The translations under genes and the position numbers were made by a program. This document shows, piece by piece, positions 3,414 to 63,261 of a stretch of DNA of 64,000 nt. How positions within the stretch are numbered: position 1 is the first letter of the stretch; each line of letters starts with the position of its first letter. The notes beneath the pieces are model-generated. The model worked only from the letters and a program-made list of their open reading frames with translations, was not told where the DNA came from and ran no database searches. Source of the DNA: an uncultured Gammaproteobacteria bacterium (lineage in GTDB: Bacteria; Patescibacteriota; Patescibacteriia; Magasanikbacterales; GWA2-37-8); assembly GCA_964624315.1 (NCBI GenBank), contig CAZUWJ010000001.1, positions 21,160 to 85,159 of the forward strand, read 5' to 3'.

Positions 3414-4463
3414 ATGAGAATTTACCGTAATTTATTTGATAAAATTATTTCTCTAGAAAATTTAATGTTGTCTTGGGAAAAATTTCGTCGTGGAAAAACC
3501 GGAAAACCTGATGTACAAAAATTTGAGTTTAATTTAGAAGAAAATATTTTTAATCTTCATCGGGAATTGAAAAATAAGACATATATACATGGCAAATACA
3601 CTGGATTTTATATTACTGACCCAAAGACTCGACATATACATAAGGCAACTGTGAAAGACAGGGTATTACACCACGCTATTTTTAGAATTTTAAACCCTGT
3701 TTTTGAAGAGACTTTTATCTCTAACTCATTTTCTTGTAGAGTAAATAAAGGAAGTCATTTGGGAGTTGAGAAACTTGCTAGTATGATTAGGTCTGAAAGT
3801 AAAAATTATACTTCACCATGTTTTGTTTTAAAGTGCGATGTTAAAAAGTTTTTTGATTCAGTTGATCATCATATACTTTTGAAAATTATTAAAAGAAGAA
3901 CATGTAATAATAGCACGAGTTGGCTAGTGGGTCAAGTGATAAAAAGTTATTCAGCCAAGCAAACCGACCTTTTTAACCGACAGGGAATACCAATAGGTAA
4001 TTTAACTTCTCAATTGTTTGCCAATATTTATTTAAACGAGCTTGATCAGTATATTAAAAACAAATTAAAGGTAAAATATTATGCCAGATATACAGATGAT
4101 TTTGTTATAGTTTCCAAGAATAAAAAATATTTAAGAGGGCTGTTAGACCCTCTTAAAGAAATGCTATTTGAAAAATTAAAATTAGAACTTCATCCGCAAA
4201 AAGTTTCCATTGAAAATATTAATAGCGGGATAGATTTTTTAGGTTATGTTATTTTTCCACACCATACTCTGATTCGTCAAAAAACTAAACGTCGAATGTT
4301 TAAAAAACTAAAAAGAGCAGTTAAACAATACAAACAGAAAGAAATTAGTCAGGAAACTTTAGAACAAAGTTTACAATCCTACTTAGGAGTTTTATCTCAC
4401 GCCAACGCTTACAAATTAAGTCAAGATTTAAAAAATATGTATTGGTTTTGGTTGAATGAGTAA
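3414..4463 (+). CDS. DGR reverse transcriptase
   Basis: 349 aa. YARYTDDFVIV (YxDD) catalytic motif, QGIPIGNLTSQLFANIYLNELD motif ([I/L]GxxxSQ, diagnostic of DGR RTs versus group II QGxxxSP) and N-terminal LENLMLSWEKFRRGK. Confidence 0.85.
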   Translation: MRIYRNLFDKIISLENLMLSWEKFRRGKTGKPDVQKFEFNLEENIFNLHRELKNKTYIHGKYTGFYITDPKTRHIHKATVKDRVLHHAIFRILNPVFEETFISNSFSCRVNKGSHLGVEKLASMIRSESKNYTSPCFVLKCDVKKFFDSVDHHILLKIIKRRTCNNSTSWLVGQVIKSYSAKQTDLFNRQGIPIGNLTSQLFANIYLNELDQYIKNKLKVKYYARYTDDFVIVSKNKKYLRGLLDPLKEMLFEKLKLELHPQKVSIENINSGIDFLGYVIFPHHTLIRQKTKRRMFKKLKRAVKQYKQKEISQETLEQSLQSYLGVLSHANAYKLSQDLKNMYWFWLNE

Positions 4464-4683: not shown

Positions 4684-5676
4684 TTAAATTTGTGAACTAA
4701 ACGGCAAAGTCTGGATAAAGTTTGTCATAAAATTCCAGTCTGGTTTACCGTTTTTAGTTGGGAGTTTTATTTTAATATCACCAGTTCTTTTGCTGGCAAC
4801 TCTACCATAATTAAAACGATATTTTTCTTTATTTATTATTGTTGCAATAAAAAGTAATATTGCCGTATTTACATTATCAAATTTTGCAATTAATGCTTTC
4901 GTTCGTGTTCCTAAATAATAATTTTGTGGTTGAGTGGTAGCAAAGAAATTACCCCTATCTGCAAGAGTTAAAGAATTTTCATGATTATATAATTTATAGT
5001 TGGGTAATTCACTTGTGTGGGCGACAACTCCGTTGTTGATAGCACTGTGTCCAATAACTGGATTTTTACCAATTAAACTCGAATAATATAACAAATCTTT
5101 TCCAGTTTCTATGTTAAATAAATCACTTAATTTGTAAATTTTCCATTTATTTATATTTAATTGTGGTGTTGCTAAGTTTTTATTTGGTTTTTTAGCATAT
5201 TGATAATTGTGCGTGTGTTCGCCAATAAACTTTTCCATAAAATTCCAGTCTGGTTTACCATTTTTAATTGGGAGTTTTATAGAACATGATTTTAAACGTT
5301 CTTGACTGGCTTTTCGTCCGTAATTATAGCGGTATTGTTCTCGATTTATAATTGTCAATAAAAACATCGCAATATTTTTTGTCATTTCAAACTTTGGAAT
5401 TAGCTTTTCTACATGGTCGCTGGCAGAAAAATCAGTATCTTGATAAGAACAATAGCCAAGCACAGCACTGTCAATGATCAAAACACCGCCTTTTTCAGTG
5501 GAGAAATTATAAAAACCTTCAACGCCGTTATTTGTGGCTTGAGTGGTTACAAATGGATTTTTTCCGATTCCGTATTCTTGTAATTCTAGAATAGGTGTTG
5601 TTTTACTTCCTTTAATTTTAAACAAATCGGAAAGATTAAAACTTTGCCAGTTTGTTGTATTAATTTTATTTATCAT
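4684..5676 (-). CDS. Type IIB (BcgI-like) restriction-modification specificity subunit with two target-recognition domains
   Basis: 330 aa. Two internal repeats share the motif NYGR.AS.R...IKLP.KNGKPDWNFM (a duplicated TRD). It overlaps the upstream R-M gene by 11 bp. Confidence 0.6.
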   Translation of the reverse strand: MINKINTTNWQSFNLSDLFKIKGSKTTPILELQEYGIGKNPFVTTQATNNGVEGFYNFSTEKGGVLIIDSAVLGYCSYQDTDFSASDHVEKLIPKFEMTKNIAMFLLTIINREQYRYNYGRKASQERLKSCSIKLPIKNGKPDWNFMEKFIGEHTHNYQYAKKPNKNLATPQLNINKWKIYKLSDLFNIETGKDLLYYSSLIGKNPVIGHSAINNGVVAHTSELPNYKLYNHENSLTLADRGNFFATTQPQNYYLGTRTKALIAKFDNVNTAILLFIATIINKEKYRFNYGRVASKRTGDIKIKLPTKNGKPDWNFMTNFIQTLPFSSQI

Positions 5677-7540
5677 CTTTTATTCCTAATTTGAATAATG
5701 TGAATTGTTTTATTGTATTAGCAAAATCATCAACAGATAAATCAGAATAATTAGTTTCCATATATGCTTCAGCGCACCATTCATTATCAGCGGTAATTTT
5801 TTTAAGGATAGACAAACCAGCAATATCTTTGTGGTTTCGATAATTTGTAATCCAATTATATTTTATACCATCTTTATAATTGTTTTCTGTAGCACCTTCA
5901 AACTTACCAAATAAGTCAATCCTACCTTTGTTTTTTCGTTTAACAAAACCATCGTCTTTGTAATAGCCAAGATAAACTTCTTTATCGGATGGATGTGGAC
6001 GTTTGGCGGTGAAAACCATTATACAAGACACCACCCCGACTTTAGAATTAAAGAATAATTCATCAGGCATTGAAAAAACCGCTTCCAATGTATGGTATTT
6101 TAAAATTTTTTTCTTGTAGTCGTATACTTTACCACTAGTGGCTAATGCTTCTTGCATTGGGACAATTGCTGCGCATAAACCGCCTTGTGATAAACAATCG
6201 AGATTGTTTAAAATAAATTCATATTCATCAATATCTGTCTTTTTATCATTTTTATATGGGGGGTTTAGTAATCCAACATTTGGCTTTTTTTCTTTAACGG
6301 ATTTAATAATATCTTTATCAAAACAACTACCGTGATTAATGTTGGTTTTACCATCTTGGTGAATGAACATGTTTGAGCAAGCGAGAGGAAATATTTTATC
6401 AGACTGTTCTGTGCCAATCAGTTGTTTTGATTTAATTGATTTTATTTTTTCTTCATCACCTTGGGCATTTTTAATCATAATATTCATTGCAGAAACTAAG
6501 AAGCCACCAGTTCCTGTACAATTATCATACACAACACTATCTTTGTTTACTTGAACTAATTCTGCCATGAATTCGGTTATGTGTGGAGGAGTTAGAACAA
6601 TACCTAAGCCTTTGTCGGAATTGGCATAACGTAAAAATTCAATATAAAGCTGTCCTAGAGCATCAAAATATTCATGGGTTTTAATAAAATCTTGAATATT
6701 TTCTTTTATATCAGTGATAATATCTCGTAAATCAGTATTATTTTTATTAGTTAAAGCTGTATTGCCAACAATTAATTTGAAGCGGTTTTCCAAAATTTTT
6801 AATTTAGTCTCACCAATTTTACCAGTTTCAAACATGTTATGGGTTGTTAAAATCAGAAAATCGGCAAGTTGCTTGGCATCAGAGTAGTTAATATAAGTTG
6901 TTGCAAAGCTATTGTTTTCAAGAGCGATTAAAATACAAGCAATCAGTAAGGCTCTTTCGTCTTCAGCAATTTTTAGTTGATGAAGTTTTTTGTTAAGTTT
7001 TTGTGAGAAAGCAAGTAATGATTGATAATCTTGACGGAACTTCTCTGGACTTTTGATATATCCATTTAAATAATCATTGAGCGGTAAAAGTTTGTCATCA
7101 AAAATTGGTGTGGCAATTTGTTCACCTTTAAGTTGTAAAAAATGAGAAATTTTTAATTCATTTGGTCTTTCACCGCTTATAGCAATAGCAAGAACATCAA
7201 AACTTTTAGATAGAAATGAACTATAAAGTTTGATACCGTCTATTGCATAGTCAGCATATTTATCAGATGTTTTGCTTTTGTGTTTGGAGGTGTTTCCTTT
7301 GCACTCTACGGCAATAATAAAATTAGGGTTGTTGCGATTTTGAATAATAAAATCTGGACGACCTTTACCAGAGCCGTCTTTTTTAGATGCGTTAGATAAC
7401 ATTTTGTTGATTTTGTCATTTCTGGAAGTTTGACGTTCATAAATCCAGTCATGTTTATTTGTATCAAGAGCCACCGCGTCAGCATACTTTTTTACAAAAT
7501 CTTCAAAAATTGTTTCTGTATTTGTTTCGTTTACTGTCAT
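5666..7540 (-). CDS. Type IIB (BcgI A-like) bifunctional restriction endonuclease / N6-adenine DNA methyltransferase
   Basis: 624 aa. N-terminal PD-(D/E)xK (GRPDFII ... IAVECK), then MTase motif I VYDNCTGTGGFL and motif IV NPPY (gamma-class order). Confidence 0.7.
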   Translation of the reverse strand: MTVNETNTETIFEDFVKKYADAVALDTNKHDWIYERQTSRNDKINKMLSNASKKDGSGKGRPDFIIQNRNNPNFIIAVECKGNTSKHKSKTSDKYADYAIDGIKLYSSFLSKSFDVLAIAISGERPNELKISHFLQLKGEQIATPIFDDKLLPLNDYLNGYIKSPEKFRQDYQSLLAFSQKLNKKLHQLKIAEDERALLIACILIALENNSFATTYINYSDAKQLADFLILTTHNMFETGKIGETKLKILENRFKLIVGNTALTNKNNTDLRDIITDIKENIQDFIKTHEYFDALGQLYIEFLRYANSDKGLGIVLTPPHITEFMAELVQVNKDSVVYDNCTGTGGFLVSAMNIMIKNAQGDEEKIKSIKSKQLIGTEQSDKIFPLACSNMFIHQDGKTNINHGSCFDKDIIKSVKEKKPNVGLLNPPYKNDKKTDIDEYEFILNNLDCLSQGGLCAAIVPMQEALATSGKVYDYKKKILKYHTLEAVFSMPDELFFNSKVGVVSCIMVFTAKRPHPSDKEVYLGYYKDDGFVKRKNKGRIDLFGKFEGATENNYKDGIKYNWITNYRNHKDIAGLSILKKITADNEWCAEAYMETNYSDLSVDDFANTIKQFTLFKLGIKDDK

Positions 7541-18318: not shown

Positions 18319-18440
18319 TGTCATCCCGAGCTTGTCGAGGGATCTTTCTTGGTACTTACTTATAAATAGCTACACAAAAAGATTCCTCCACTCCGCTCTG
18401 CCCCTCCTCCTCGTCGGGACGAGCTACGGTCGGAATGACA
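18319..18440. repeat. MITE-like palindromic repeat, GC-rich-core subfamily
   Basis: Termini TGTCATCCCGAG ... CGGAATGACA. Internal GC-rich segment CCGCTCTGCCCCTCCTCCTCGTCGGGACGAGCTACGGTC is shared with 22626..22762 and, in reverse complement, with 53420..53547. Confidence 0.7.
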
Positions 18441-20171: not shown

Positions 20172-20196
20172 AAAATGTAGTCCTAAATAATCTGCT

Positions 20197-20248
20197 GTCA
20201 TCCTGAGTGAAACGAAGGATCTAGATTCTTCGATACCTCAGAATGACA
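20197..20248. repeat. MITE-like palindromic repeat, short 52-bp form
   Basis: TGTCATCCTGAGTGAAACGAAGGATCT / AGATTCTTCGATACCTCAGAATGACA near-perfect palindrome between convergent genes. Confidence 0.7.
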
Positions 20249-25964: not shown

Positions 25965-26232
25965 CTGTCATCCTGAGGAACCGAAGGATCTAATACCACA
26001 GCTCTAGATCCTTCGATTCCTCAGGATGACAATGCCCTACCTAGAAAGATATTGTACCACAGCTCTAGATCCTTCGATTCCTCAGAATGACAATGCCCTA
26101 CCTAGAAAGATATTGTACCACAACTTTAGATTCTTCTCCGCCACCCGGCGGATCAGAATGACAACACTCCCTTTGTAGGTAGGCAAACCCGCTTTCGCGG
26201 GGATAACACTATATTTTTTGTTTAATATAAAA
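25965..26232. repeat. tandem array of MITE-like repeat units and half-units
   Basis: One full palindromic unit, then two tandem roughly 60-bp units ATGCCCTACCTAGAAAGATATTGTACCACAGCTCTAGATCCTTCGATTCCTCAG(G/A)ATGACA, then two degenerate units ending in AGAATGACA and CCCGCTTTCGCGGGGATAACA. Confidence 0.7.
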
Positions 26233-49238: not shown

Positions 49239-49317
49239 TGTCATTCCCGCGAAAGCGAGAATCCAGAAACGTTTTATTGGTAAATTCTCCTGGATCCCCG
49301 CTTTCGCGGGGATGACA
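49239..49317. repeat. MITE-like palindromic repeat, CCCGCGAAAGCG-core variant
   Basis: TGTCATTCCCGCGAAAGCGAGAATCCAG ... CTGGATCCCCGCTTTCGCGGGGATGACA. Confidence 0.7.
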
Positions 49318-50750: not shown

Positions 50751-51803
50751 CTAAAACATCCTTCTCACTTTTCTCAAAAATTTGTAAAACAAATACTTTT
50801 TATTATTTAAGATAATATCCACTGTTCCTGCGTCTTCTTTATATTCTCCTCCAAACCCAAGTTTGAATCTAGTTACACCAGCGTATTGATGGTCTTTGTT
50901 ATATTCAAATTCTTTTTTAGATCCTTCGCTCCGCTCAGGATGACAAGAGGGCTCAGGATGACAAGAAAAGTCAGGATGGCAGTTAACACAAGGCGCTATC
51001 CCAAAAAAATCATAATATTTATAACCCAACTCTTTACCAAACTTTATTGCTCCCCATTGTAGTAAATTCGGAGCCATTAACTTCCTATATTCATAATCAG
51101 ACGCCCCATAAAGATAGGTAAAAGTATCGCCAAAGCCAATAAATACGCCTGTCGCCACTACCCCGTCATCTTTATAGGCATTTAACTGGTAACTCAAATC
51201 AAATTCTAAAATTTCTTTATAATGTTTTTTATCATGCAGTCTAAAACCATCTCTTTGTCCAGTTTCTTGCATCAAATTAAAAAATTTATCAAAATCTTTT
51301 TCTTTTTTTACAACCACACCTTTCCTTTCAGACAATCCAATATTATACCTAGTCTTTGAATGCATGTTTTGCAAAATTTCTTCTTCATTTTTTGATATAT
51401 CTAATACTAAAGTAGACTTAGGATTAATATCTTTAGAAAATATAAATTTAAAATCCGAAGCCTGTATTTGCTCTTTTGGTTCAATACGTAAAAATATACA
51501 CTTTTTTTCTATAAAATAATCACTCAAGGTTCTCAAAACTTCTGTTTTCTCATCATCACCATCAATAAAAACAGGGCCTTTGGGACAAAAAGCATATTTT
51601 AATCCAAAAAACAGATCACTATACACAACCTGACATTCAGCTTTTATCTCCTCACCATCTAAAACCGCTAACCTTTCCACTTTTTTACCTTCATTTTCTA
51701 AAATTTTACCCCATCTTGAGCTTTGAGAAAAAGAAGAAAAACAGCTATTTTCTACTAGCCATTCATCCCAGCTGTCATTATTTTGTATTTTTTTAACTTC
51801 CAT
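50751..51803 (-). CDS. FemAB/FemX-family peptidoglycan branch aminoacyltransferase-like protein with in-frame repeat insertion
   Basis: Fem-like N-terminus (FSQSSRWGKI). The central segment CVNCHPDFSCHPEPSCHPERSEGS is encoded by a MITE end at 50919..50981. Confidence 0.5.
   Translation of the reverse strand: MEVKKIQNNDSWDEWLVENSCFSSFSQSSRWGKILENEGKKVERLAVLDGEEIKAECQVVYSDLFFGLKYAFCPKGPVFIDGDDEKTEVLRTLSDYFIEKKCIFLRIEPKEQIQASDFKFIFSKDINPKSTLVLDISKNEEEILQNMHSKTRYNIGLSERKGVVVKKEKDFDKFFNLMQETGQRDGFRLHDKKHYKEILEFDLSYQLNAYKDDGVVATGVFIGFGDTFTYLYGASDYEYRKLMAPNLLQWGAIKFGKELGYKYYDFFGIAPCVNCHPDFSCHPEPSCHPERSEGSKKEFEYNKDHQYAGVTRFKLGFGGEYKEDAGTVDIILNNKKYLFYKFLRKVRRMF
50919..50981. repeat. MITE-like repeat fragment (three tandem CTCAGGATGACA termini) embedded in coding sequence
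   Basis: AGATCCTTCGCTCCGCTCAGGATGACA AGAGGGCTCAGGATGACA AGAAAAGTCAGGATGGCA on the plus strand. Translated in-frame on the minus strand as the CHPx repeats. Confidence 0.7.
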
Positions 51804-53419: not shown

Positions 53420-53547
53420 TGTCATTCCGACCGTAGTCCGCCGAAGGAGGCGGACGAAGCGGAGGAATCTTTCTGTATAATTACCAAAAAAGATCTCTCC
53501 ATTTCGTTCGTATCCACTCACTTCAGTCGAGATGACAGTATTATCAC
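53420..53547. repeat. MITE-like palindromic repeat, GC-rich-core subfamily, inverted orientation
   Basis: TGTCATTCCGACCGTAGTCCGCCGAAGGAGGCGGACGAAGCGGAGGAATCTT ... CAGTCGAGATGACA is the reverse-complement form of 18319..18440. Confidence 0.7.
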
Positions 53548-53565
53548 AAACTGATAATTTAACCT

Positions 53566-53638
53566 GGGTCGCTAGCTCAGTTGGTAGAGCAGGTCCCTCT
53601 TAAGGACAAGGTCCAGGGTTCGATCCCCTGGCGACCCA
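53566..53638 (+). tRNA. tRNA-Lys (anticodon CTT)
   Basis: Acceptor GGGTCGC/GCGACCC, D-arm GCTC-AGTTGGTA-GAGC, anticodon loop CTCTTAA, T-arm CAGGG-TTCGATC-CCCTG. Confidence 0.85.
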
Positions 53639-53646
53639 CACTAATA

Positions 53647-53718
53647 GCCCCTGTAGTGAAATGGATATCATGCTTGGCTTCGGACTAAGTGTTCCGGGTT
53701 CGAATCCTGGTGGGGGCA
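53647..53718 (+). tRNA. tRNA-Arg (anticodon TCG)
   Basis: Acceptor GCCCCTG/TGGGGGC (two GU pairs), anticodon stem CTTGG/CTAAG with loop CTTCGGA, T-arm CCGGG-TTCGAAT-CCTGG, short variable loop. Confidence 0.75.
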
Positions 53719-54805: not shown

Positions 54806-55042
54806 GTGAACACTATGCCACCTAAGAAAAAACCAGCAAAAAGAAAAGTAACTAAGAAAAAAGTTGCTAAAAGAAAAGTTACAAAAAGGAAACCGGCTAA
54901 AAAGAAAGCTGCTCCTAAAAGAAAAGTAGCTAAGAAAAAACCGGCAAAGAAAAAAGCTGCTAAAAGGAAACCGGCTAAAAAGAAAGCTGCTCCTAAAAGA
55001 AAAGTAGCTAAGAAAAAACCGGCTAAACGTAAGAAAAGATAA
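54806..55042 (+). CDS. histone H1-like lysine/alanine/proline-repeat nucleoid protein
   Basis: 78 aa, more than 50% K/R. Tandem KKKPAKKKAAPKRKVAKKKPAKRK repeats. GGAGGTG SD. Own terminator at 55056..55091. Confidence 0.5.
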   Translation: MNTMPPKKKPAKRKVTKKKVAKRKVTKRKPAKKKAAPKRKVAKKKPAKKKAAKRKPAKKKAAPKRKVAKKKPAKRKKR

Positions 55043-55095: not shown

Positions 55096-56361
55096 TTAAT
55101 CTAACTCTAAACCAACTTGTACAAAATCCCCTCTATCTTTTTTATCTTTAAAAACTTTTACAATACCAAACTCTCCATCATAGCCAGGTATCACATAAAC
55201 ATTACCCTCCCTCACTCTTTTGATAGCCTCGACAATTTTTTTGTCAGTTACATTTTTAATATCTTCTAAACTAACATCTAACAATATACCAAATTCATTC
55301 CCTAATTTTGATATCATCTCATCATACTGTAACTTAACTTTTTTTGTATTTACTCCGCACCCAAAAGTATCAGCCAAAATTTCAGGTAAAGGCACTAAGC
55401 TTTTATATGGGATTCTGTCTACACCGCTATTATCATTTTTATCAGACAACTCATTTATTCTATTTAAAACCCCAACTGTCAGTTTCTTTTTACATTTTGG
55501 GCAAATACCTTTTAATTTTTTTGTTTCTTCTGGCTCGCAAGAAAAATGACAATTGCGACAACCATCTGTATGATACTTTCCTTCTTCTGGATAAAATTCT
55601 ATTGTGTATAAAAATTTCTTTTTGTCTCCTGTTCTAAATATTCTCATTATTTCATTATAATTTATATCTTTTTCATCTTTAAAATCTAAAACATTTGCTT
55701 CTCTACCTAGTTTTTGCAAACTATGGGCATCAGAATTTGAAACCAACGTAATATTATCTAACATTGGCACTTGCCAATTCATCAGAGGGTCAGATGACAA
55801 ACCAGTCTCAATTGCAAAAATATGAGGAGTTAACTCTTCAAACGCATCTTCTAAACTATCATAACCACCTTTAGATCCTAAAATACCAAACCAAGGCGTC
55901 CAAGCGTGCGCTGGAATCATCACCATGCGATCATCAACCCCTAATATCAACTCCAAAAGTTGTTTAGCAGTTAAACCTATAATAGGACGCCCGTCTGATT
56001 TTAAATTAAAACCATCTTTTTCTAATTTTTTATTAAATTTTTCTGCAATTTCTATATTAGGAGCAAAAACACATAAATGAACGCGTCTAGTTTTATCTTT
56101 ATGTTTTTTGATAACTGCTAATTCTGTTCCAATAATGAATTTTGTTGGGCTTGACCCATCTTTTAATTTATAAATTCCAGAAGTATCCTCTACTAGATTT
56201 TCTTTTATATGTTCAAACCAGCCCGGATGAGTAAAGTCCCCGGTTGAAACTATATCTATTCCCCTTACCTCGCAAGCTTTAGCAATTTTGGGCAATACCA
56301 ACTCTGGGGAACAAGCTCGAGAATATTTTGAATGGATATGAAGGTCTAGGATTTTTTTCAT
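55096..56361 (-). CDS. PHP-domain nuclease, endonuclease Q-like
   Basis: 421 aa. N-terminal DLHIHSKYSRA PHP motif, further His/Asp ligands (IPAHAW, SNSDAH) and a C-terminal zinc finger (CRNCHFSC ... CPKCKKK), as in archaeal EndoQ. Confidence 0.45.
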   Translation of the reverse strand: MKKILDLHIHSKYSRACSPELVLPKIAKACEVRGIDIVSTGDFTHPGWFEHIKENLVEDTSGIYKLKDGSSPTKFIIGTELAVIKKHKDKTRRVHLCVFAPNIEIAEKFNKKLEKDGFNLKSDGRPIIGLTAKQLLELILGVDDRMVMIPAHAWTPWFGILGSKGGYDSLEDAFEELTPHIFAIETGLSSDPLMNWQVPMLDNITLVSNSDAHSLQKLGREANVLDFKDEKDINYNEIMRIFRTGDKKKFLYTIEFYPEEGKYHTDGCRNCHFSCEPEETKKLKGICPKCKKKLTVGVLNRINELSDKNDNSGVDRIPYKSLVPLPEILADTFGCGVNTKKVKLQYDEMISKLGNEFGILLDVSLEDIKNVTDKKIVEAIKRVREGNVYVIPGYDGEFGIVKVFKDKKDRGDFVQVGLELD

Positions 56362-60014: not shown

Positions 60015-60091
60015 TGTCATCCTGAGTGAAACGAAGGATCTTAATTCCGCTACTAGATTCTTCGCTCCACTCAGAATGACAACCTGATTAT
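60015..60091. repeat. MITE-like palindromic repeat, GAACGAAGGATC-core subfamily
   Basis: TGTCATCCTGAGTGAAACGAAGGATCT ... GATTCTTCGCTCCACTCAGAATGACA between the gamma and beta subunit genes. Confidence 0.7.
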
Positions 60092-63194: not shown

Positions 63195-63261
63195 TGTCAT
63201 CCTGAGTGGAACGAAGGATCTAACAACGTACTTAAAATTCTTCGCTCCACTCAGAATGACA
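63195..63261. repeat. MITE-like palindromic repeat, GAACGAAGGATC-core subfamily
   Basis: TGTCATCCTGAGTGGAACGAAGGATCT ... ATTCTTCGCTCCACTCAGAATGACA. Closest relative of 60015..60091. Confidence 0.7.

Follow-up and report, generated by a model that had tools for sequence, protein, structure and literature searches.

The site analysed here, 50919-50981, lies in a 64-kb stretch of DNA (the whole of which we call the window); the sole long ORF that the listing gives at this site is 50751..51803 on the minus strand. Its 350-aa translation matched the Pfam family FemAB (PF02388) with E = 1.8e-41 and 142.8 bits against a cutoff of 24, and the GNAT domain Acetyltransf_6 with 1.5e-08. From its sequence, the product is a putative aminoacyl-tRNA-dependent peptidoglycan cross-bridge transferase. 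We found no second FemAB paralogue within the 64-kb window. The gene and the features inside it are listed below, each with the basis of its assignment (P0002 and P0003 are the two closest homologues).

50751..51803, minus strand: putative FemX/FemAB-like gene, intact, 350 aa (ORF, Pfam, AlphaFold and fold search)
50862..50867, minus strand: codons for the invariant Phe313-Lys314 (43-sequence alignment)
50919..50945, minus strand: unit 3, complete 27-nt arm TGTCATCCTGAGCGGAGCGAAGGATCT, encoding CHPERSEGS, aa 287-295 (sequence and arm comparison)
50946..50963, minus strand: unit 2, 18-nt head TGTCATCCTGAGCCCTCT, encoding CHPEPS, aa 281-286 (sequence and arm comparison)
50964..50981, minus strand: unit 1, diverged 18-nt head TGCCATCCTGACTTTTCT, encoding CHPDFS, aa 275-280 (sequence and arm comparison)
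50982..50990, minus strand: TGTGTTAAC, encoding CVN, aa 272-274, extra sequence at the left junction (comparison with P0002 and P0003)

Within the ORF, the plus strand of 50919-50981 reads agatccttcgctccgctcaggatgaca / agagggctcaggatgaca / agaaaagtcaggatggca, and the translation runs across it as ...APCVNCHPDFSCHPEPSCHPERSEGSKKEFEYNKDHQYAGVTRFK... On the coding strand the insert consists of three tandem terminal arms of a TGTCAT-ended palindromic repeat, 18 + 18 + 27 nt long, which are read in frame as CHPDFS-CHPEPS-CHPERSEGS. The original prediction of three in-frame tandem copies of an element terminus was correct to the base, in its coordinates as well as in its peptide. Tandem Repeats Finder reported a period of 18 with 2.5 copies and 85% matches at 50934-50978. 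When the 27-nt unit at 50919-50945 was compared with the arms of three intergenic hairpins of the window (20196-20248, 60015-60081 and 63195-63261), 23-25 of the 27 positions matched. Both 18-nt units start with the same 12 nt and all three units finish in TCT; judged by their letters, the 18-nt units look like the 27-nt arm minus 9 nt. The strongest divergence is seen in the unit at 50964-50981 (TGCCATCCTGAC...), with which reading of the array begins. The ORF stays open because all unit lengths are multiples of three and the arm contains no stop codon in this frame. All three units are of the 'CC...GG' type. In the intergenic copies this type forms the 5' (left) arm; in the gene it lies on the minus strand. 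One arm type is therefore present three times, and the partner arm is absent from the genic segment. Since the opposite arm is missing, the genic insert has no hairpin, and its RNA fold z-score of -0.24 indicates no structure above background. The opposite arm would have been lost or would never have arrived, and with it the strong hairpin of the complete copies would be gone.

The complete copies of the repeat and of its relatives are spread over the intergenic parts of the window, as follows.

18319-18440: sister-family copy with TGTCAT[CT]C tips (sequence comparison)
20196..20248, plus strand: complete intergenic hairpin of the same family as the FemAB insert (fold z = -4.4)
25966..26136, plus strand: intergenic hairpin (25966-26031) followed by a 61-nt tandem repeat, x2.3 (sequence and Tandem Repeats Finder)
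49239..49317, plus strand: intergenic sister-family copy TGTCATTCCCGCGAAAGCG... (sequence comparison)
53420..53537, plus strand: intergenic third-family copy TGTCATTCCGACCG... (sequence comparison)
60015..60081, plus strand: complete intergenic hairpin of the same family as the FemAB insert (fold z = -7.9)
63195..63261, plus strand: complete intergenic hairpin of the same family as the FemAB insert (fold z = -7.0)

With at most 1 mismatch allowed, the window contains 14 occurrences of the 12-mer CTCAGGATGACA, where chance predicts 0.14; this enrichment of about 100-fold in 64 kb was reached in 0 of 100 shuffles. It forms the hairpin tip of the intergenic elements, whose layout is TGTCATCCTGAG.G.A.CGAAGGATCT, a short loop and then AGATTCTTCG...CTCAGAATGACA. 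These intergenic copies are near-perfect 27-nt inverted arms with fold z-scores of -4.4 to -7.9. In the region 25966..26136 the 61-nt repeat unit is made up of the right arm and a 34-nt spacer. The sister families at 18319-18440, 49239-49317 and 53420-53537 have kept the TGTCAT[CT]C tips, while their stems are different. In all, we counted about 10 copies of 53-125 nt in the 64 kb, and the FemAB copy is the only one that lies within a gene. The copies are small, non-coding, dispersed and multicopy, and related ones occur in many related loci. The element had been called a MITE, and a dispersed palindromic repeat element it is; however, no target-site duplication flanks any of the 41 complete copies from the window and the related loci, and no transposase was found among the ORFs scanned. 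For this reason 'palindromic repeat element' is the safer name. The flanks of the 41 complete copies show T at -1 in 30 and A at +1 in 29, with no further consensus. We infer that the elements transpose. An Rfam scan of the whole window returned four tRNAs only and no match on any hairpin copy. In the open-access literature we found no description of the element family or of such inserts in Patescibacteria, and literature matches to the element sequence or its peptide were limited to unrelated primers.

In a collection of 5.8 billion proteins the window protein had 4405 homologues, the best of which were FemA/FemB-family proteins of Patescibacteria and Magasanikbacteria. The stretch from YDFFG[IV]AP to HQYAGVTRFK, which contains the insert and is referred to here as the loop, usually measures 15-20 aa among 120 homologues, against 39 aa in the window protein. 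P0003, which is 66% identical to it overall and 72% outside the loop, has a 16-aa stretch, APLDENKKYNEKHQYA, at this position; because this closest orthologue is without the CHP segment, the segment is an insertion, as had been proposed. In P0002, the other closest homologue, which is likewise 72% identical outside the loop, the loop is occupied by another element, a complete hairpin of 124 nt that belongs to the 53420-type family (fold z = -6.0). An orthologue with the same CHP segment, which would have spoken for an ancestral origin, did not turn up: none of 269 proteins and 80 genomic loci carries the threefold segment. An ancestral origin of the segment in the protein family, or an assembly artefact, is hardly credible, as P0003 and the great majority of the 269 homologues are without it, and comparable in-frame inserts occupy the same loop in independent assemblies from many studies. 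An exact 21-nt anchor of the insert locus had no match in metagenome contigs; the exact window protein had no record in the contig index, and its protein cluster consists of a single member. The extra sequence at the left junction, TGTGTTAAC, has a counterpart in P0002 (TGC GTT GGT) and none in P0003. The whole left junction, CCT TGY GTT RRY TGY CAT, is common to the window gene and to P0002, although the latter carries a different complete element, and therefore unit 1 may, on the evidence of these letters, be the remnant of an older element. The 3-unit array may thus reflect more than one event, with the other two heads having been added later or alongside unit 1.

Arrays of this kind are not restricted to the window. 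By scanning metagenomes for the pattern TGTCATCCTGAG-NNN-TCT-TGTCATCCTGAG we found head arrays on 15 contigs with a G+C content from 40 to 66%, composed of 2-5 heads followed by a full arm, usually without the opposite arm. In two loci (L092 and L097) the heads stand ahead of a complete hairpin. An in-frame array, (CHPELS)2-CHPERSEGS, lies in a PUA-domain protein of L091, which is probably an RlmI-like methyltransferase, and an ArsP_2 heavy-metal exporter in L094 has two in-frame arrays of 4 and 5 heads in His/Cys-rich loops. The triple head in the window is one instance of this recurrent architecture. The triplication may be local: slippage during replication would have expanded one inserted arm into an 18-nt minisatellite, as opposed to a pre-formed array that arrived as such or one built up by successive insertions. 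We rate this at somewhat below an even chance. It would account for the 18-nt period in frame and for the variable copy number at the 15 metagenome loci, most of which lack the opposite arm, and the 61-nt tandem repeat of the other arm is an intergenic parallel within the window itself. However, the complete elements of L092 and L097 are headed by an 18-mer identical to unit 2, which points to mobility of multi-head elements as units, and unit 1 is far more diverged and shares its junction with P0002, which suggests a separate, older event.

We modelled the window protein with AlphaFold2 from a 43-sequence family alignment and obtained a mean pLDDT of 91.6 and a pTM of 0.88. A Foldseek search with this model gave FemX structures as the best matches, with 1xe4 at E = 1e-22 and a TM of 0.69-0.72, and also 6snr and 4ii9; across Weissella viridescens FemX (FemX(Wv)) and the FemX and FemA of Staphylococcus aureus the fold search gave E-values of 1e-22 to 1e-19. 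According to the model, the protein has the double-GNAT fold of the FemABX transferases (FemX(Wv) 1ne9/4ii9, S. aureus FemX 6snr and FemA 1lrz), with which it also shares the Pfam FemAB domain, and in an HMM search the family profile matches 6snr, 1lrz and FemX(Wv) as well. Sequence identity to these enzymes, in contrast, amounts to just 16-20%, and the Patescibacteria subfamily differs from them by its own Y-x-Y-D-x-x-HQYAGVTRFK motif and by the variable loop. Every invariant column of the 43-sequence alignment is kept in the window protein, including H305-Q306-Y307 and F313-K314. The invariant Phe-Lys pair, which the subfamily has in common with the known transferases and which lies downstream of the loop, was aligned by the HMM with the FK of S. 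aureus FemX (6snr) and FemA (1lrz), and Phe313-Lys314 would be equivalent to Phe304/Lys305 of FemX(Wv). In that enzyme the tRNA nucleotide C75 is contacted by Phe304, a residue conserved throughout the Fem transferases, and Lys305 is the catalytic residue (PMC9723616, PMC12945691).

The insert ends about 18 residues before Phe313-Lys314. In the model, a pLDDT below 50 is limited to residues 277-292, and DSSP assigns isolated bridge residues at 272 and 301, which we read as C272 and Y301, the ends of the insert, pairing with each other in a beta-bridge. With this pairing the insert would bulge out without disturbing the double-GNAT fold. The structure check bears out a confident FemX fold, and the insert itself, expected to form a surface loop, is modelled as a low-confidence excursion between 272 and 301. 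That the insertion is tolerated, as had been suggested, is in line with the intact ORF, the family-invariant residues, all of which are kept, and the high mean pLDDT. We therefore consider it very probable that the insert is the in-frame remnant of an element, carried as a tolerated passenger in a permissive loop. It would represent a hairpin-less remnant of a TGTCAT-terminated palindromic repeat, in frame in a predicted surface loop of a FemX-like transferase, in a genome of the Patescibacteria that most resembles Magasanikbacteria, and would not form a functional module. The alternative that had been raised, exaptation of the segment as a Cys/His-containing loop, was not borne out. The pattern CxxCH-x4-CH-x4-CH (4 Cys and 3 His in 17 residues) could in principle form a metal-binding or redox loop that modulates the enzyme, and its richness in Cys and His about 18 residues upstream of the catalytic Phe-Lys speaks for the idea. 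In addition, the heavy-metal exporter in L094, with its two (CHPExS)n arrays, demonstrates that such arrays can sit where metal ligands are expected. Nevertheless, we regard such a function as very unlikely, since the CHP segment is conserved in no homologue and its Cys and His are there because the element tip supplies the codons TGT CAT. In other orthologues the elements are translated differently, as VIPA... or IIPT..., which contain neither Cys nor His, and so there is no family-level sign of a selected Cys/His function. The model also gives the segment a pLDDT below 50, a value that is uninformative without alignment depth. A further candidate, a self-cleaving ribozyme with a hammerhead-like core in the arm (CUGAG...GAA), was rejected on inspection, as positions 8-9 and stem II do not fit.

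The loop has received inserts in many relatives of the window gene. We scanned one genome per species, which gave 80 loci, mostly from Magasanikbacteria, and observed complete hairpins of other families in the same loop of L001, L002, L020, L023, L047, L054, L071 and L072; P0002 has one as well. Those of L002, L020, L047 and L072 belong to the sister family of 49239..49317, and that of P0002 to the third family of 53420..53537; the loop of L047 contains one complete element and part of a second. L005, L009 and L022 have heptanucleotide tandem repeats in the same loop, and so does L071 in its second FemAB paralogue. When 1.84 billion cluster representatives were searched with a profile, the loop inserts of P0123, P0124 and P0128 were added, and distant subfamilies proved to have short loops of 2-8 aa. 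Of 194 non-redundant Patescibacteria orthologues (mostly Magasanikbacteria), 31 have a loop of at least 30 aa. Fitch parsimony on a neighbour-joining tree required at least 27 changes (gains or losses) for these 31 long loops; for the 21 inserts that are clearly of the TGTCAT type it required at least 18. The event count is approximate because the tree is crude. At any other site in the protein, inserts of at least 8 aa were observed in at most 3 sequences.

Closely related sequences illustrate this turnover. L020 and L046, with 96% identity outside the loop, differ in that an insert is present in one and absent from the other; among P0019, P0030, L047 and P0114, at 85-94% identity, four different loop states occur. 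The nearest neighbours of insert carriers are usually without an insert, as in the pairs P0014/P0088 (78% identical) and P0038/P0083 (80%). The inserts belong to several element families and are read in several frames. Left arms alone appear in two frames across the orthologues, CHS... or VIP..., and therefore one ancestral insertion cannot explain the pattern. Elements would have been gained, replaced and eroded repeatedly at the FemX loop across the clade, and the loop would be by far the most permissive or the most targeted site in the protein. We also counted single 8-mer arms, which reach 0.21 per kb in FemAB genes against 0.063 per kb in other ORFs (Fisher p = 0.004). Because the density in other ORFs equals chance expectation, single 8-mer arms are uninformative; the excess in FemAB genes is weak support, and our conclusions were based on paired arms, the lengths of the loops and phylogeny.

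Inspection of 19 TGTCAT-type inserts showed that 12 of them end on the right exactly 2 nt ahead of the conserved Tyr codon, a regularity that pure tolerance does not predict. L002 and L047 have a 74-nt element in common at 93% identity, whereas their flanking coding DNA is 65% identical. The loop tract of L020 resembles that of the distant L002, while the remaining gene is 93-98% identical to L046. The fixed right junction, the shared element and the L020 tract suggest something beyond simple tolerance: new elements may be targeted to remnants of earlier ones, the copies in the loop may evolve in concert with copies elsewhere in the genome, or recombination may exchange the loop. Few ancient gains followed by many losses, or recombinational loop exchange, would also fit some of the data.

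In a stronger form, the loop could be a targeted hotspot, for example next to earlier remnants, or an exchangeable cassette between conserved flanks, possibly with selected variability near the tRNA/substrate site. The concentration of at least 18-27 events at one loop against no more than 3 sequences at any other site speaks for such a mechanism, as do a right junction that is identical in 12 of 19 TGTCAT-type inserts across element families and a left junction that the window protein and P0002 have in common despite their different elements. It would also accommodate the 74-nt element that L002 and L047 share between diverged flanks, the L020 loop tract that is like L002 and unlike its close relative L046, and the accumulation of heptanucleotide tandem repeats in the same loop. 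On the other hand, the flanks of the 41 complete copies hold no consensus beyond the T at -1 and the A at +1, variability has no evident use in a cytoplasmic enzyme, and the similar recurrent loop in TopA (described below) indicates that a general filter for permissive sites explains much. We consider a hotspot or cassette unlikely. The fullest version, with a truly targeted or exchangeable hypervariable site that undergoes fixed-junction insertion of palindromic elements and heptanucleotide repeats, replacement and possibly swapping across species through recombination at the conserved flanks, and whose peptides, including (CHPExS)n, are sometimes recruited, is a little less probable again. 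A diversity-generating retroelement, which came into question because the window contains a reverse transcriptase at 3414-4463, was rejected, as the variation consists of whole repeat elements without A-to-N substitutions and the target is no C-terminal lectin fold.

True in-frame inserts were also observed in other genes of the related loci: in TopA of L020, in an ATP-grasp/citrate-binding protein of L067, in a SAM methyltransferase of L071 and in a PHP-like protein of L072, the uninserted orthologue of which is encoded at 55096-56361 of the window. TopA is affected at one loop, after EEYW.I, where L020 and L002 have element-derived sequence and 13 other orthologues have nothing; the same loop of L046 holds a probable element remnant, so that 2-3 of 16 orthologues are affected. 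Because TopA behaves likewise at one loop, the activity of the repeats combined with a filter for permissive sites would suffice for the pattern in FemX too, with targeting of pre-existing remnants as a possible addition. We infer that active repeats filtered by a few permissive loops explain most of what we observed.

The closest parallel to these inserts are the Rickettsia palindromic elements (RPEs; Ogata et al. 2000, 2002, via PMC10969869). Many RPE copies lie in frame inside ORFs and are predicted to be compatible with the fold and function of the protein (PMC10969869). Both systems combine a small genome with short palindromes that occur in intergenic DNA and also, in frame, within conserved housekeeping genes; the reading frame of the host gene is kept open, and the extra peptide is predicted to sit where the fold can accommodate it. 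The FemX insert is of the RPE type in that it lies in frame in a conserved gene, preserves the ORF and is absent from orthologues, and the same holds for the inserts in TopA, the ATP-grasp protein, the methyltransferase and the PHP-like protein. The likeness is an analogy only, however, as the elements have TGTCAT termini and would form an unrelated family, and the host is from the Patescibacteria. Elements here measure about 53-125 nt against about 100-150 bp for RPEs, and the copy in the window gene is a single arm, tripled as 18-nt heads and without a palindrome. Many independent events at one loop are a further difference, which we did not find emphasised for RPEs in the portions of the literature drawn on.

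Looser parallels are the QMITEs of Coxiella burnetii and the intragenic ERIC and RU elements of enterobacteria (PMC5896051, PMC2759123, PMC10969869). These are reportedly small non-autonomous repeats which are occasionally intragenic and contribute peptide segments, but they belong to other families and other hosts. REP/BIME elements, which RAYT transposases mobilise, are reported to share with the present ones a small extragenic palindromic form, the lack of target-site duplications and clustering in tandem (PMC3733652); REPs, in contrast, measure 20-40 nt and have GTAG or CGTC tags. The elements described here have arms of 27 nt and termini of the form TGTCAT[CT]C, with a TGTCAT tag in place of the REP/RAYT tags.

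Two aspects appear modestly novel, namely a strongly recurrent insertion loop that adjoins the active site of a cell-wall enzyme, and the multi-head array architecture that recurs across phyla. The phenomenon of selfish DNA in coding genes, known from Rickettsia, extends to the very small genomes of the Candidate Phyla Radiation, where a single loop in a cell-wall enzyme would have gained, exchanged and worn down such DNA many times over. The filled and empty sites, together with the decayed ones, form a natural series in which the movement of repeats and the birth of new peptide segments can be followed, as can the accommodation by proteins of 20-60 additional residues beside an active site. 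Peptides translated from repeats, among them CHPERSEGS, VIPA..GNP and ..PQDD, inflate and distort protein families in metagenome-assembled genomes and should be flagged as repeat-derived.

In-frame insertion also recurs at a second loop, the one that follows EEYW.I in topoisomerase I, with element-derived inserts in two related loci, L020 and L002. The insert in L020 reads FCHSDSS-LVIPAP...GNDN and that in L002 reads FCHSDAKM...TEDN, and the loop in a third locus, L046, probably holds an element remnant. The genes concerned are:
L020:11260-13608 (-), topoisomerase I, with insert
L002:6146-8506 (-), topoisomerase I, with insert
L046:11194-13509 (-), topoisomerase I, with probable remnant
In 13 other orthologues, that of the window among them, the loop carries no insert. 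A filled and an empty version were also observed for a PHP-like protein: the one encoded in the related locus L072 (2781-4199) contains an element-derived insert of 43 aa, and the uninserted 421-aa window orthologue (55096-56361, minus strand) confirms this insert as real.

The loop before the invariant Phe-Lys of FemAB-like proteins also accumulates a second kind of repeat, as in-frame heptanucleotide tandem repeats occupy it in four loci:
L005:6015-6074, heptanucleotide repeat
L022:5659-5724, heptanucleotide repeat
L009:10829-10921, heptanucleotide repeat
L071:11943-12002, heptanucleotide repeat
This set comprises (AGAAGTC)n, (AAGGAAC)n, (TCGAAAT)n and (AATYAGG)n, from which peptides with a period of 7 aa result, e.g. 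SEVRSQK. Comparing the FemAB genes of L020 (10001-11047) and L046 (10001-10981), we observed 93-98% DNA identity except in roughly 100 nt that surround the loop; in L020 this tract resembles the one in the FemAB gene of the distant L002 (4912-5946), and it is either recombined or hypermutable.

Arrays of the 18-nt heads were found in unrelated proteins of two metagenome contigs as well. An ArsP_2 'putative 10TM heavy-metal exporter' (L094:241-1575, plus strand, contig JAEIGA010159501.1) carries two in-frame arrays of 4 and 5 heads that read (CHPE[HT]S)n-CHPERSEGS, both located in its His/Cys-rich loops. The exporter is a candidate example of a Cys/His peptide of repeat origin that could be functionally relevant. 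A PUA-domain protein (L091:7504-8103, plus strand, contig JAEIGA010031473.1), probably an RlmI-like methyltransferase, contains (CHPELS)2-CHPERSEGS in frame, and the opposite arm is missing as in most other head arrays.

Between genes of the window, a complete hairpin (25966-26031) is directly followed by a 61-nt tandem repeat (25994-26136; 2.3 copies, 95% matches) in which each unit consists of the right arm of the element and a 34-nt spacer; therefore element arms are able to multiply in tandem outside genes too. Another hairpin element (53420-53537, 118 nt) belongs to the TGTCATTCCGACCG family, which also occupies the FemAB loop of P0002, a close homologue of the window FemX-like protein, and has two tRNA genes directly downstream of it:
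53566-53638, tRNA gene
53647-53718, tRNA gene

Two further regions of the window were recorded. A 349-aa reverse transcriptase (Pfam RVT_1, 1.3e-25), which could be defence-associated or come from a retron or diversity-generating retroelement, adjoins a type I restriction-modification specificity subunit:
3414-4463 (+), reverse transcriptase ORF
4684-5676 (-), ORF of this neighbourhood
5666-7540 (-), ORF of this neighbourhood
The 78-aa ORF at 54806-55042 (plus strand) consists almost entirely of Lys, Ala, Pro and Arg (KKPAKKKAA...), is underlain by a 78-nt tandem repeat (2.4 copies, 89% matches) and could encode a protein of the histone-like or nucleoid type, or else be a non-coding repeat.
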